Part shown: piece after piece, positions 2,558 to 6,198 of the stretch | How positions within the stretch are numbered: position 1 is the stretch's first letter | How the letters are laid out: every line of letters begins with the position of its first letter | NCBI GenBank assembly: GCA_965218785.1 | Contig: OZ244650.1 | Coordinates: 1,927,090-1,991,089, forward strand | Source: Nitrosopumilus sp. | GTDB lineage: Archaea; Thermoproteota; Nitrososphaeria; Nitrososphaerales; Nitrosopumilaceae | Length of the DNA: 64,000 nt | Reading direction: 5' to 3' | Translations under genes and position numbers: made by a program | The notes under the pieces: generated by a model | Database searches by the model: none | What the model was told of the DNA's origin: nothing | Seen by the model: only the letters and a program-made list of their open reading frames with translations

Positions 2558-3925
2558 TTGACGGATAAGATTTCTTGGACCAATCCTTCTGTAAAACTAT
2601 TAGCTAAAGATCAAGATCCTGTAGATGTTGTTGTAGGTAAAACTAGAGAACTTATCTTTGATGCCATAGATGGAGGATGGAAAGGTCCGCCATACGATCC
2701 AGTGAGTCTTGCAAAAAATTTAGGTTTTGATGTAATTCCTAATGAAGACGTGTTGGATGCACGGGTAATTTCAAAAGGAACCAATGTACAAATCGAGTAT
2801 AATCCTAATAAATCTAAAACAAGAATTAGATTTTCTCTTGCACATGAGATAGCTCATACTCTATTTCCAGATTATAAAGAATCTATTAGAAACAGATCAA
2901 AACAACACAGTAGACCTGATGGCTGGCAATTAGAATTATTATGTAATATTGCTGCCTCTGAAATACTAATTCCTGTTGTACCTCCATCTAATTTAGGTCA
3001 TTTAGTAATCACTATGAATAATTTGATTGAGATAAAAAAAAGATATGATGTTTCAATGGAATCAGTACTTTTACGAATGATCAAATTAACAACACAGCCT
3101 ATTACATTTTTCTCAGCTGCAAGAAAAATAGATGATAAAAATTCATCTTTCCGTATTGACTATGTAATTAATTCCAAAACTTCCTTGTTGAATATTAAAT
3201 CTGGAATGGAAATTCCATCAGATAGTGTTCTATCTGAATGTTCTGCTATTGGTTTTACTGCCCAACGGAAAGAAAAATGGTTTAAAGAATTGCCTTCCTT
3301 AGATATTGAATGTGTAGGTGTTTCACCATATCCAACTAATGTTTGTCCCCGTGTTATTGGAATTATTAAAACAAAATCAAAAAAAAATACTGAACCATTA
3401 CGTATTCAATATCTTGTAGGTGATGCAACAGAACCACATGGAAATGGGGGGAAAATGATTGTACATATTGTAAATGATCAAAGCAAAAGATGGGGGAGAG
3501 GTTTTGGATTAAACATTTCTAAAAAATGGCCCAAACTTGGAACCAATTTTGTTAAATGGGCTAATCTGGATTCATTGACTCTTGGAACATGTCATATTTT
3601 TAATGCTTCTAATAATTTAGTAATAATTAGTATGATCACTCAACATGGTTATGGGAAATCTAAAAAACCTAGAATTCGTTATAGTTCTCTTGCAACTTGT
3701 TTGGAAATTGTTGCTATTGAAGCTAAGAAAGAATCAGCTAACGTTCACATGCCTAGAATTGGTACAGGATATGCAGGCGGTGATTGGAAAATTATTAGTG
3801 AAATGGTTGATGATTTATTAATTAAACGAGGTATTGAGGTTACAGTATATGATCTGCCTGAAACACAACGACCCAGAGAAAATTATAACTTGTTAGATTT
3901 TTCATCTCCCGAATTACTTTGTTGA
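2558..3925 (+). CDS. ImmA/IrrE-family Zn metallopeptidase (HExxH) fused to C-terminal macrodomain (TARG1/Poa1p/DarG-like ADP-ribosylglycohydrolase)
   Basis: RIRFSLAHEIAH...ELLCNIAASEILIP (DUF955/IrrE motifs). C-terminal YLVGDAT, IVHIVND..WGRGFG, VHMPRIGTGYAGGDW (macrodomain). Probable start TTG 2558; ORF track starts at 2471. Confidence 0.85.
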   Translation: MTDKISWTNPSVKLLAKDQDPVDVVVGKTRELIFDAIDGGWKGPPYDPVSLAKNLGFDVIPNEDVLDARVISKGTNVQIEYNPNKSKTRIRFSLAHEIAHTLFPDYKESIRNRSKQHSRPDGWQLELLCNIAASEILIPVVPPSNLGHLVITMNNLIEIKKRYDVSMESVLLRMIKLTTQPITFFSAARKIDDKNSSFRIDYVINSKTSLLNIKSGMEIPSDSVLSECSAIGFTAQRKEKWFKELPSLDIECVGVSPYPTNVCPRVIGIIKTKSKKNTEPLRIQYLVGDATEPHGNGGKMIVHIVNDQSKRWGRGFGLNISKKWPKLGTNFVKWANLDSLTLGTCHIFNASNNLVIISMITQHGYGKSKKPRIRYSSLATCLEIVAIEAKKESANVHMPRIGTGYAGGDWKIISEMVDDLLIKRGIEVTVYDLPETQRPRENYNLLDFSSPELLC

Positions 3926-3937
3926 GGTGGTTCTTAA

Positions 3938-5536
3938 TTGCCCGATAAATTCATACTAATATCAGGACCAATATCTTCTGGAAAATCTAAACTCTCCAAT
4001 CAACTTTCAGATAAATTAGATGCTCGTTTGATAAAAACACGAGATATTTTGATACGTACAAAAAAAATCAACTCAAATGATCGAATATCTTTGCAAAAAG
4101 AAGGAGATAAACTAGATAAAAAAACTGATGGAAAATGGGTTTTAGAAGATTTAGATTGTGTAGTTAGAAACAATACTAAAGAAAATACTATTTTTGTTGT
4201 TGATTCTGTACGTATTTCTCAACAAATTGAAAGAATTAGAGATGCATTTAAACCCGTCATTCATTTACATCTCACAGCTCCAAATGATGTATTAAAAAAA
4301 AGATATCAGCAACGTTACAAAAAACAAGAAAATGTTCCATCATATAAACAAGTCAAATGTAACAAAACTGAAAAAAATATTGAAACTTTAGCACCTATAG
4401 CTGATGTCGTTATTGATACCAATCGTTGCAATGAAAATGATGTTTTTGTACGTGCTGCAAGTAGGATGTCCTTATTTGGTGAAAATGGAAATGGAATAGT
4501 TGATGTTGTAGTTGGAGGAGAATATGGAAGTGAAGGCAAAGGTCAGATTGTAGCCTATTTGTCTAAAGAATATGATCTTCTAGTTAGAGTTGGAGGTCCA
4601 AATGCAGGACATAGGGTTTTTGCAAAACCTGAATCTTACACACATCATCATCTTCCATCAGGTACAAAAAAAAGTACTGCTAAACTTTTGTTAGGACCCG
4701 GTATGGTTATCAATCCTAAAAATTTACTTACTGAAATTATGGAATGTGATGTAGAATCTGACAGATTAAGTATTGATCCCCAAGCTATGATTATTGATGA
4801 AGAGGATATTAAATCTGAAATTGAATTGGTAAAAACTATAGGTTCTACGGGTCAAGGTGTAGGCGCTGCAACTGCTAGAAAAATTCTCAAACGAAATAAA
4901 AATACACTTCTCGCTAAAGATGTTCGTGACTTAAAACAATACATTAAACCTGCCATTAAAGTACTTGAAAAAACATTTGCAAATAATGGACGAGTTTTAT
5001 TAGAAGGGACTCAGGGAACGGGTCTAAGTATTCATCATGGTTCATACCCATATGTAACATCTAGGGAAACTACTGTTTCAGGATGTTTGGCAGATGCTGG
5101 AATTCCACCATCTCGTGTAAGAAAAGTGATAATGGTATGTAGGACATATCCCATACGAGTTAAAAACCCAGAAGGTAAATCGTCGGGACCTATGAGTCAG
5201 GAAATCAGCTTAAACGAAATAAGTAAACGTTCTAAAATTCCATTAACTGAACTAAAAAAAACAGAAAGAACTTCTACTACTAACAAAAAACGAAGGATTG
5301 GTGAATTTGATTGGGATCTGATAAAAACAGCTACATTCTTGAACAGTCCTACGGATATTGCATTAACCTTTGCTGATTACTTGTCAATTAAAAATCGAAG
5401 TGCAAAAAGATTTGAACAATTAACAACAGATACAATAAATTTAATTGAGGAAATAGAACGTGTTACAAAGGCCAAAATATCTTTAATTGGCACTGGTTTT
5501 AATTCTAGAAGTATTATTGATAGACGGGATTGGTGA
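3938..5536 (+). CDS. P-loop nucleotide-kinase domain fused to adenylosuccinate synthetase-like (PurA/PurZ-family) domain
   Basis: N-terminus ISGPISSGKS, VVDSVR..Q, HLTAP...KRY (NMP/dephospho-CoA kinase fold). C-terminus GGEYGSEGKG, GGPNAGH, GSTGQGVG, LLEGTQG..LSIHHGSYPYVTSR, RTYPIRV, TTNKKRRIGEFD, LTFADYL. GAGGTG SD-like sequence at 3924-3929. Confidence 0.85.
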   Translation: MPDKFILISGPISSGKSKLSNQLSDKLDARLIKTRDILIRTKKINSNDRISLQKEGDKLDKKTDGKWVLEDLDCVVRNNTKENTIFVVDSVRISQQIERIRDAFKPVIHLHLTAPNDVLKKRYQQRYKKQENVPSYKQVKCNKTEKNIETLAPIADVVIDTNRCNENDVFVRAASRMSLFGENGNGIVDVVVGGEYGSEGKGQIVAYLSKEYDLLVRVGGPNAGHRVFAKPESYTHHHLPSGTKKSTAKLLLGPGMVINPKNLLTEIMECDVESDRLSIDPQAMIIDEEDIKSEIELVKTIGSTGQGVGAATARKILKRNKNTLLAKDVRDLKQYIKPAIKVLEKTFANNGRVLLEGTQGTGLSIHHGSYPYVTSRETTVSGCLADAGIPPSRVRKVIMVCRTYPIRVKNPEGKSSGPMSQEISLNEISKRSKIPLTELKKTERTSTTNKKRRIGEFDWDLIKTATFLNSPTDIALTFADYLSIKNRSAKRFEQLTTDTINLIEEIERVTKAKISLIGTGFNSRSIIDRRDW

Positions 5537-6198
5537 TTGAATTAGATTTAATCGCACTAGTAACACAATATCCTTTCTTATATCATATGGCTGAATCTGG
5601 TAGTTGGTCAAACATAAAAAAAAATGGACTTTTGAGTACATCTGCTCTTTTGGATTTATTTGAGATTAAAGGAGAAGAAAGAAAAATAATAGAATCCAAT
5701 TGGAGACCCAAAAATGTGACTATTAACCATAAAAAATATGGTAAAGCTGTTATTAGAGATCAAAAACCATTACCTGAAAATAAACTTGAACCACTTTTAG
5801 ACAATATATCTACAAAATCATTTTATAAATTATTGAATGGAAAAACATTTTTTTGGTTAAGCAAAGAGAGATTACAACGATTGCTAAATGCAAGAGCATA
5901 TAGAGAAAGTTCTCATGATGTATTGACAATAGATGCAAAAAAACTAATCGATAAATACGAAGATCAGATTGCTCTTTCTCGGATTAATTCTGGTGCAGCT
6001 ATTTTTGGCGTGGGTCGTCGCGGTCGATATACATTTCAAAAAATTAAGGATTATTCCTATGACGATATTAAGAAAAAACAAAAAGAAGCAATTGCTGAAT
6101 TGGCGGTTGATTATGCAGTGCCAGATATTGTTAATCATACACTTCGTGTAGAAACATGGAAAGGTAGTTTTCCTACGAGAGTCATATGGAAAAAATAG
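5533..6198 (+). CDS. DarT-like ADP-ribosyltransferase (DUF7002-like)
   Basis: LYHMA...IKKNGLLS, IRDQ, TFFW, INSGA, AELAV..AVP parallel the DarT motifs YHxT/GLLS/R/YF/NAA/AExLV. GTGA start-stop overlap with the upstream gene; ORF track starts at 5530. Confidence 0.65.
   Translation: MIELDLIALVTQYPFLYHMAESGSWSNIKKNGLLSTSALLDLFEIKGEERKIIESNWRPKNVTINHKKYGKAVIRDQKPLPENKLEPLLDNISTKSFYKLLNGKTFFWLSKERLQRLLNARAYRESSHDVLTIDAKKLIDKYEDQIALSRINSGAAIFGVGRRGRYTFQKIKDYSYDDIKKKQKEAIAELAVDYAVPDIVNHTLRVETWKGSFPTRVIWKK

Follow-up and report, generated by a model that had tools for sequence, protein, structure and literature searches.

A DarT-like transferase, a kinase-fused PurZ-like synthetase and a protease-macrodomain fusion in one archaeal operon: a candidate mobile conflict module

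Introduction

The three-gene operon considered here, found in a 64,000-nucleotide stretch of DNA from an archaeon, Nitrosopumilus sp. (the window, G000:C1:1927090-1991089, of a genome of about 2.0 Mb), has partial counterparts in several described systems. Proteases such as IrrE/PprI, ImmA and CapP react to DNA damage or to single-stranded DNA, and the usual substrate of ImmA, IrrE and CapP is a helix-turn-helix (HTH) repressor; among nucleotide-based systems Kongming is akin to the operon in logic only. Closest is a new family resembling ADP-ribosyltransferases (ARTs), Lmac_3114, which is similar to DarT and has the motifs Hxx / FFW / xxE (PMC12522546; BMC Genomics 2025). In the accessible part of that paper an adenylosuccinate synthetase is present in 60% of Lmac_3114 neighbourhoods, at times accompanied by an AAA domain and NUDIX, operons are described for rhizobia, a version from Pseudomonas brings together AAA, synthetase and NUDIX domains, the family is reported from bacteria only, and regulation via purine and NAD supply is proposed. 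The DarTG systems, toxin-antitoxin and anti-phage in kind, pair a DarT transferase with DarG, in which a macrodomain of ALC1-like class is joined to a C-terminal domain. A macrodomain of another type, SCO6735, strips DarT-made ADP-ribose from thymidine in DNA, both in vitro and in cells, an activity abolished by mutation of its Gln85, according to the available text of PMC9411070. PurZ, a succino-amino-deoxyadenylate synthase, is the phage enzyme with which the making of 2-aminoadenine (Z) DNA begins. The available parts of the sources trace the origin of its lineage, loosely, to archaeal PurA (PMC8342488; PMC12884076), and have the phage route to dZTP completed by host PurB and GMP kinase (bioRxiv 10.1101/2025.10.22.683976).

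Set beside these, the operon is a candidate variant of ADP-ribosylation-based conflict systems in which the pairing of transferase and synthetase is already in print and the remainder is apparently new. How new? An earlier note on this DNA knew of no described system combining all the parts, which is too strong: the full trio was not found in print, but the transferase-synthetase pairing was, given what is visible of PMC12522546. In the literature searched, supplementary tables excluded, nothing was found on a three-gene system, on archaeal members, on a kinase-fused synthetase of the PurZ clade or on a SCO6735-type macrodomain fused to an IrrE-like protease. The operon was also right to be thought uncatalogued: PADLOC-DB v2.0.0 (2023) yields only partial domain matches to different systems, i.e., capP, DarG and the kinase part of dCTPase.

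The operon

Three plus-strand open reading frames (ORFs) without internal stops, co-oriented and tightly coupled, occupy the window from 2471 (or 2558) to 6198, as had been claimed before. With their domains they are as follows.

2471 to 3925, plus strand: gene 1, 484 aa from the TTG at 2471; an in-frame TTG at 2558 would give 455 aa, and the start is uncertain
3398 to 3925, plus strand: macrodomain of gene 1, residues about 310-484, aligning end to end with SCO6735 (5e3b chain residues 24-180, E 5e-29) and BT1257
3938 to 5536, plus strand: gene 2, 532 aa, from the TTG at 3938
3938 to 4492, plus strand: kinase domain of gene 2, its N-terminal 185 residues, with a P-loop like that of nucleoside monophosphate (NMP) kinases, Walker A G10-S17
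4493 to 5536, plus strand: PurA-like domain of gene 2, a short PurA with S198, K201, N222, H225, Q359, R452, R453 and D480
5530 to 6198, plus strand: gene 3, 222 aa, its start overlapping the gene 2 stop

The stop of gene 1, TGA at 3923-3925, is followed by 12 nt to the TTG of gene 2 at 3938, with a GAGGTG that straddles the stop, and the stop of gene 2, TGA at 5534-5536, is overlapped by two in-frame candidate starts of gene 3, TTG 5530 and GTG 5533, so that both the 12-bp gap with its GAGGTG and the GTGA overlap described earlier are real on reading of the sequence. Where does gene 3 begin? Its public protein record (P0001) has 203 aa and by our reading begins at ATG 5587. Within the region at window 5530-5587 that start cuts off a conserved LYH motif, which holds the probable catalytic His19, and because of this loss the upstream, overlapping start is the likely one. 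Among the 38 aligned relatives eight are shortened at the start in the same way, which suggests that start-site misannotation of the gene 3 family is widespread.

The transferase

Gene 3 belongs to Pfam DUF7002 (PF22531), a name not found in any paper in the literature search; the match has 208.7 bits over a cut-off of 27 (E 8e-62) and spans 194 of the 195 profile positions. As a gene 3 profile found nothing among PDB sequences at E up to 10, the relationship to ARTs is visible only by fold comparison; the DarT family, likewise, had no match to gene 3 in Pfam, NCBIfam or PADLOC at E up to 0.1. For the structure model, built on the alignment of 38 relatives and with a predicted local distance difference test score (pLDDT) of 94.6, the best Foldseek match is DarT (7yk3_C, E 1.8e-4; 8baq), and the remaining recognised matches are ART-fold proteins, namely cholera-, pertussis- and Rhs-type toxins and Tpt1. 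By VIA-align the model reaches Z 10.6 over 161 residues with DarT1 (8baq) and Z 9.3 with DarTG, the DarT alignments spanning 153-161 residues; with Tpt1 it reaches Z 8.0-8.5 at 18-19% identity over only about 95 residues. The motifs His19, Phe-Phe-Trp 107-109 and Glu190 are intact, and H19, W109 and E190 are present in all 81 sequences compared, whatever their neighbourhood. With the DUF7002 match, the DarT fold matches and the conserved His, FFW and Glu, gene 3 is by fold and motifs a predicted DarT-like, HYE-type member of the ADP-ribosyltransferase superfamily, in agreement with the earlier proposal of a DarT-like enzyme.

Is DUF7002 the Lmac_3114 family under another name? We infer that it is, by comparison with the description rather than the sequence of Lmac_3114, since motifs and neighbourhood match. 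Both have a DarT-like fold, with Hxx / FFW / xxE corresponding to H19, F107-F108-W109 and E190 of gene 3; both have a synthetase as operon partner, in 60% of cases there and in 56 of 80 loci here, and the two-gene Rhizobium operon of that work is met here too. The differences, as far as the accessible part of PMC12522546 goes, are the archaeal members found here, where that paper has bacteria only, and the M78-macrodomain gene, the PurZ clade and its Ser13, which are not mentioned there.

The protease-macrodomain fusion

A model of gene 1 (pLDDT 85.9, predicted TM-score 0.80) is made up of an M78 domain, then a beta-rich middle domain and, at the C-terminus, a macrodomain. Assignment of the first to M78 has two grounds, a Peptidase_M78 (PF06114) score above cut-off (45.2 bits against 22, E 1e-11) and an intact HExxH, H125/E126/H129, invariant in the 31 rows of alignment A2; PADLOC capP also matches (E 1.4e-17). 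The Pfam match to Macro is weak (E 0.022), and it is a profile of 31 orthologues, run against PDB, that places the C-terminal part: BT1257 (2afc 4e-51, 2fg1 1e-50), SCO6735 (5e3b 2e-46), and also ALC1 and TARG1. From the same profile come IrrE (3dte, 2.5e-11) and CapP (7t5t, 2e-9). Foldseek agrees on both halves, the macrodomain matching BT1257 (2fg1, TMt 0.92) and SCO6735 (5e3b, TMt 0.90) at 44% and 37% identity, and the N-terminal ~250 residues matching PprI/IrrE over about 250 columns and CapP over 270; among the matches is 8sln, whose entry title includes 'complexed with ssDNA'. The metallopeptidase of ImmA/IrrE type and the macrodomain that the earlier note read in gene 1 are accordingly both borne out by profile and fold.

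By sequence and structure the macrodomain is assigned to the SCO6735/BT1257 subclass of ALC1-like macrodomains and is a predicted hydrolase. Gln391 of gene 1 pairs with residue 105 of the 5e3b chain, which is SCO6735 Gln85 on the assumption of a 20-residue tag, and the Gln is invariant in alignment A2 (Q331). Macrodomains of this type strip thymidine in single-stranded DNA of its ADP-ribose, and that of gene 1, which keeps the key Gln, is a likely eraser.

The likeness to DarTG is thus one of a DarT-like transferase fold together with a macrodomain in the ALC1-like class of DarG, of a type that can reverse the DarT product (PMC9411070, in its available text). The differences are several. The transferase here is Pfam DUF7002 and not DarT; the macrodomain is SCO6735/BT1257-type and not DarG, with 22.5 bits in NCBIfam DarG NF048014, where the cut-off of 250 is not reached; and where DarG has its C-terminal domain the fusion partner here is an IrrE-like protease, PADLOC DarG matching the macro part only (E 2.3e-7) and the remainder fitting IrrE and CapP. 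Moreover, DarTG has no counterpart of the kinase-PurZ-like enzyme, which is an obligatory partner here. Compared with IrrE/PprI-DdrO, ImmA-ImmR and CapP-CapH, gene 1 shares an M78 domain with intact HExxH and the domain following it, over about 250-270 aligned columns, and differs in that its operon is without an HTH repressor, that the protease is macrodomain-fused and that no CBASS or SOS-type regulon is attached.

The kinase-synthetase fusion

That gene 2 joins a kinase to a PurZ-like synthetase of the PurA family, as proposed earlier, holds on the Pfam and PDB matches and on the grouping with PurZ/PurZ0 in a tree. For the kinase domain these matches are Pfam AAA_18 (E 6.9e-10) and AAA_33 (E 5.7e-6), the kinase part of the PADLOC dCTPase model (E 9.8e-7) and, by PDB profile across the whole domain, the adenylate-kinase-related 3lw7 and 3h0k (E 3e-10), with adenylate kinases next. 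Nineteen columns are invariant in 34 sequences of the domain, and PF00709 is also present in all of its best 120 relatives. There is a likeness here to the anti-phage dCTP deaminases of AvcD type, in which an N-terminal P-loop kinase-like domain is again fused to a base-converting nucleotide enzyme; the catalytic domain of gene 2 is, however, PurA-like and not a deaminase, and the enzyme is always paired with the transferase. What the operon may share with AvcD-type and other nucleotide-pool effectors, and with Kongming, is the idea of a pool depleted or corrupted or of a nucleotide signal.

The synthetase part matches Adenylsucc_synt (PF00709, E 5e-59), and in PDB both Pyrococcus horikoshii PurA (2e-53) and phiVC8 PurZ (1e-38). 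It reaches none of the NCBIfam cut-offs, neither that of archaeal PurA (NF003295, 294.4 bits against 368) nor that of TIGR00184 (214.5 against 395.6) nor that of PurZ (NF038379, 211.7 against 300). A PurA/PurZ tree was made of 90 rows, comprising 56 operon domains, seven phage enzymes of PurZ/PurZ0 type and 27 housekeeping enzymes of both long and short type, with L012 (a short match) and L138 (an in-frame stop) left out. Its split between the housekeeping enzymes and the operon and phage enzymes together has support of 100/100, and the operon enzymes form a clade of their own (100/99), the branching order of operon, PurZ and PurZ0 enzymes not being settled by the tree. At the position of Asp13 all 55 operon rows and all seven phage rows have Ser, and all 27 housekeeping rows have Asp. 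The available part of PMC12884076 gives Asp13 for 99% of PurA and Ser for all 147 phage PurZ, to which four archaeal sequences carrying Ser or Gly are basal. The operon and phage enzymes also have in common a PIRV motif with an insertion behind it, and a Phe that replaces the PurA Lys of the T-K-x-D motif. The catalytic residues of gene 2 are all invariant in the alignments. Asp480, the counterpart of the PurA Asp that binds the guanine of GTP (E. coli D333), is retained, as it is in PurA and in three of the six aligned phage enzymes.

Gene 2 thus stands on the phage side of the PurA tree, with the Ser, the PIRV motif and insertion, the Phe and D480 as likenesses to PurZ/PurZ0. It differs in being cellular, in its separate clade, in the fused NMP-kinase-like domain and further insertions, in falling below the PurZ cut-off (212 against 300 bits), and apparently in its company: HD- and MazG-type families are absent from the nine island ORFs scanned, with no dedicated search for DatZ, MazZ and DpoZ at the other loci.

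Could gene 2 be simply a second adenylosuccinate synthase, with genes 1 and 3 processing ADP-ribose or 2'-phosphate ends in the manner of Poa1 and Tpt1? The public name of its relatives is 'adenylosuccinate synthase', Poa1p ADP-ribose-1''-phosphatase does match the gene 1 macrodomain, and the Tpt1 structures, at the Z scores given above, match the gene 3 model. However, those Tpt1 matches cover about 95 residues against the 153-161 of DarT, the third motif keeps its Glu, by which PMC12522546, in its accessible part, places the family in the HYE clade, and the essential Asp13 is replaced by Ser. The genome, besides, has a separate housekeeping purA of 337 aa, as did all five of the other carrier genomes searched, and none of the 60 relatives has the operon, which is patchily distributed over phyla, with flanks that vary. 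A role in housekeeping or repair is, then, very improbable, and on three counts, i.e., scores below the equivalog cut-offs, Ser for Asp13 and the separate purA, gene 2 is predicted not to be the housekeeping PurA.

Some observations on annotation may be added. In public sources the relatives of gene 2 go by 'adenylosuccinate synthase' or 'synthetase' and carry a purine-biosynthesis Gene Ontology term, despite the lack of Asp13 and the coexistence of a true purA. The phiVC8 record (L095) annotates its PurZ as 'similar to Solibacter usitatus [YP_827486]', an acidobacterial protein, a remark that fits a cellular PurZ-like clade common in Acidobacteriota. The closest phage relative of the PurA-like domain, at 37% identity, is in Bacillus phage vB_BpsS-140 (L097 2950-4071), under the bare annotation 'purA'; like all the phage rows it carries Ser in place of Asp13, and it stands on a long branch with the phiVC8 group. 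A genome of the same phylum, G078, has two short-type purA copies (C4:36370-37362 and C18:11171-12157), one of them with an in-frame TGA.

Co-occurrence and distribution

Two surveys were made, one of genomes seeded with gene 3, where 345 stretches were confirmed and the best 80 analysed, and one of metagenome contigs seeded with gene 2, where 566 were confirmed and again the best 80 analysed. In the former all five domains were co-oriented in 47 of 80 loci, and within these 47 the M78 domain and macrodomain shared one ORF in 44 and the kinase and PurA-like domains in all. In one further locus of the 80 the M78 match was reversed, in six (Myxococcota) there were only the kinase-PurA gene and the transferase, and in two there were a PurA-like domain and the transferase, one of them cut by the contig end; overall a full-length PurA-like gene stood beside the transferase in 56 of 80. 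In the metagenome survey the kinase domain was present in 80 of 80, the transferase was found downstream by tblastn in 65 of 72 testable loci, the M78-macrodomain gene upstream in 66 of 68, and the full trio in 55 of 63. A different effector in the seven loci that lacked a tblastn transferase was considered and rejected: the five scanned all had a divergent DUF7002, L194 and L200 being outside the scan. Because the same gene order recurs in 47 of 80 genome loci and 55 of the 63 testable metagenome loci, the operon is not a chance arrangement, and the expectation that the three genes would co-occur across bacteria and archaea is upheld. Genes 2 and 3 are its obligatory core and gene 1 a frequent accessory.

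The carriers include, among archaea, Nitrososphaerota, Bathyarchaeia and Thermoplasmata (the window; L001-L005 and L080), and among bacteria Acidobacteriota, Chloroflexota, Verrucomicrobiota, Planctomycetota, Actinomycetota, Myxococcota, Binatota, Pseudomonadota and others. The archaeal copies are nested among bacterial copies in the tree.

The place of gene 1 is at times taken by something else. In a Sorangium locus (L062 4242-5273) a trypsin-like peptidase with an EAD1 domain is directly upstream of gene 2, so that one protease appears to have been swapped for another; an ORF of similar size is in the same place at a second Sorangium locus, L076 4192-5277, as is one in a Hyalangium locus, and in an Archangium locus (L038 2956-5232) the place is held by a HerA-like ATPase. 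Nine Chloroflexota loci (L024, L026, L031, L032, L034, L043, L046, L053 and L069) with a lone transferase have a shared gene order, and its neighbouring ORFs (453, 475 and 184 aa in L031), none with a Pfam match, may be partners or may reflect the synteny of kinship.

Genomic setting

The window genome is the sole carrier of PF22531 among the relatives searched: a Pfam search found the family in none of 60 related genomes, 36 of the same genus and 24 of the same order. The operon is within an AT-rich block, as stated before, the GC content of 2501-6500 being 0.29-0.35 against 0.44-0.50 from 6501 on, to the right of the block. Two further features are relevant.

1446 to 2251, minus strand: two short ORFs, an apparent insertion sequence (IS) transposase remnant, with weak Pfam matches (DDE_Tnp_1, E 0.0055; DUF772, E 7e-4)
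6583 to 6605, no strand: right edge of an insertion of ~14.1 kb, where blastn similarity to same-genus genomes starts in three of three

The IS remnant is directly upstream of the operon. Downstream are genes for an aminotransferase, an NMN adenylyltransferase-like protein and an RtcA-like protein, names read from the translations and not assigned by a tool, so the operon does lie, as had been noted, between an IS remnant (by weak transposase matches) and housekeeping genes. In three complete same-genus genomes the flank preceding the aminotransferase gene matches G000:C1:~1919555, and tblastx of the relatives' upstream flank puts the left edge of the insertion outside the window, at about G000:C1:1919556. 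Since the flanks of the relatives rejoin around this stretch, the genome has a ~14.1 kb insertion with the operon at its right end. Horizontal acquisition, the earlier note's view, is borne out by two results, the absence of PF22531 from 60 of 60 relatives and the location inside an insertion relative to three same-genus genomes.

Otherwise the island encodes proteins of DUF5655/NucS-like and CAP-domain type and two ORFs that match nothing in Pfam, which together fill the left part of the insertion, and besides these a helicase-nuclease and the IS remnant. The DUF5655 protein, outside the window (L094 1285-2202, plus strand), has weak NucS-C and HSDR_N-like matches. The helicase-nuclease, 1030 aa, is a UvrD-type helicase fused to a PD-(D/E)XK/Cas4-like nuclease (L094 6612-9704, plus strand; its C-terminus is 2 to 1114 of the window) and ends ~1.4 kb upstream of the operon, with the IS remnant in between. 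A DarTG variant dependent on a UvrD-like helicase is described in the available text of PMC13069673.

What surrounds the operon elsewhere? The two nearest ORFs on each side were scanned for 46 trio loci (L003, identical to L002, was left out), 141 of 167 ORFs being within the size limit. No neighbour family is recurrent, the maximum being 4 of the 141 flanking ORFs, and the idea of a fixed neighbour that completes the system was rejected, none being found among them. The commonest families are type I/II/III methylases of restriction-modification, HNH, ResIII, mad2 and DpdF; ArdC-N, AbiEii-like AAA_21 and dCTP-deaminase-like domains are each in two of the 141. In a Rhizobium conjugative plasmid the two-gene version adjoins SIR2+DUF87 and AbiEi/AbiEii, in a Burkholderia thailandensis plasmid it adjoins a transposase and an integrase, and other loci add MmeI-type restriction-modification and an integrase. 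The neighbour listing, by itself, suggests defence islands and mobile elements.

Does the operon then serve the elements? It would be cargo of a (pro)virus or plasmid that remodels nucleotide pools or DNA for the benefit of the element, for instance by partial Z-base synthesis, with ADP-ribosylation as an anti-defence measure. Gene 2 groups with phage PurZ/PurZ0, plasmid copies are in 14 records, an IS remnant is beside the operon in the window, and IMG/VR has four viral contigs with the family, of which two have the complete trio. Set against this, those four are from 2.9 million viral contigs as compared with 345 confirmed stretches in genomes, most carrier loci are on long chromosomal contigs, the operon copies are a clade apart from the phage enzymes (100/99), and the nine island ORFs scanned include none like DatZ, MazZ or DpoZ, all of which makes metabolism on behalf of an element improbable. 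One viral contig (L144 4753-5839) has two consecutive kinase-domain matches before the PurA-like domain and is without the M78-macrodomain gene.

Discussion

The reading we prefer, tentatively and at a little below an even chance, is that the operon is a self-contained, horizontally mobile three-gene conflict module centred on nucleic-acid ADP-ribosylation, whose function would be anti-virus, abortive-infection or toxin-antitoxin-like. In such a module the transferase of gene 3 would ADP-ribosylate the DNA, or RNA, of a replicating invader, and the macrodomain of gene 1 would erase the ADP-ribose mark on host nucleic acid. The protease of gene 1 may, like IrrE and CapP, react to DNA damage or to single-stranded DNA, and would then shift the balance through cleavage of a partner or of itself. 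Gene 2 would convert (d)GMP and aspartate, with GTP, into N6-succino-2-amino(deoxy)adenylate, its kinase domain phosphorylating a nucleoside monophosphate of the same route, with the net effect that guanine nucleotides are drained or aberrant (Z-type) nucleotides made.

Several results pull the other way. In 24 of the 80 genome loci the transferase is without a full gene 2 (one retains a remnant of 38 aa, and two are cut off too close upstream to tell), and the idea of a gene 2 hidden elsewhere in such genomes was rejected, as none of the five searched had a convincing kinase domain, the best reaching 42 bits; because of this the transferase is not an obligate toxin needing these partners. Two-gene versions without any macrodomain also occur, which weakens the case for the macrodomain as an indispensable antitoxin, and together with the lone transferases they argue that the transferase is not a constitutive toxin. 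The idea of an ART effector with a macrodomain eraser, put forward in the earlier note, therefore survives as regards the domains and the eraser type of the macrodomain, while its strict toxin/eraser logic is not universal, gene 1 being sometimes absent and the transferase sometimes alone. The window operon has no HTH ORF, so a protease-repressor pair of the usual sort is lacking, and HTH_3 and HTH_31 are each in only two of the 141 flanking ORFs of the 46 loci. Only a small minority of the flanking ORFs are of defence type. Finally, in the accessible part of PMC12522546 NAD is docked in the family model in what that paper calls a non-standard pose.

That cells evidently tolerate a lone transferase is as expected of an effector needing activation, and raises the issue of a signal relay, in logic resembling Kongming, CBASS or Thoeris. 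Gene 2 would sense raised dGMP or guanine nucleotide, e.g., from host DNA breakdown in infection, and make a succino-2-aminoadenine nucleotide that switches on the transferase or the protease, with the macrodomain as the part that binds and erases the signal or ADP-ribose. The transferase is nearly always behind gene 2 (65 of 72, and the five of five rechecked misses), the reading frames overlap, the catalytic residues of gene 2 are invariant throughout, and macrodomain-protease fusion is an arrangement known for sensor-effector fusions. However, the transferase, with its 222 aa, shows no evident ligand-sensing domain, the macrodomain has the look of a complete hydrolase of the type that acts on DNA, and transferase-only loci would be without their activator; no result here separates a signal from a bulk nucleotide effect. 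We regard the relay as unlikely.

To return to the conflict module centred on ADP-ribosylation, a bolder form of it is possible, though we would sooner doubt than accept it. Archaea and bacteria would own a PurZ-clade enzyme, and the first step of the Z pathway, kinase-fused, would serve an immune module with a DarT-like transferase under the control of a damage-sensing protease-macrodomain. From (d)GMP the enzyme would make succino-2-amino(deoxy)adenine or Z nucleotides, as a poison, mark or signal, and the clade would be a candidate source, or sister, of phage PurZ. If true, this would be the first cellular use of PurZ chemistry.

The enzymes of the operon are small and soluble-looking and have clear point mutants, which makes these ideas directly testable. 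The naming of gene 2 relatives as 'adenylosuccinate synthase', a common misannotation, would be corrected. The operon links two topics so far studied separately, DarT-type ADP-ribosylation of nucleic acid and the PurZ chemistry behind Z-genomes, and through it the PurZ lineage would gain a cellular context. If it is a defence system, a widespread module, with 345 genome and 566 metagenome stretches in two domains of life, joins the ADP-ribosylation-based defences.

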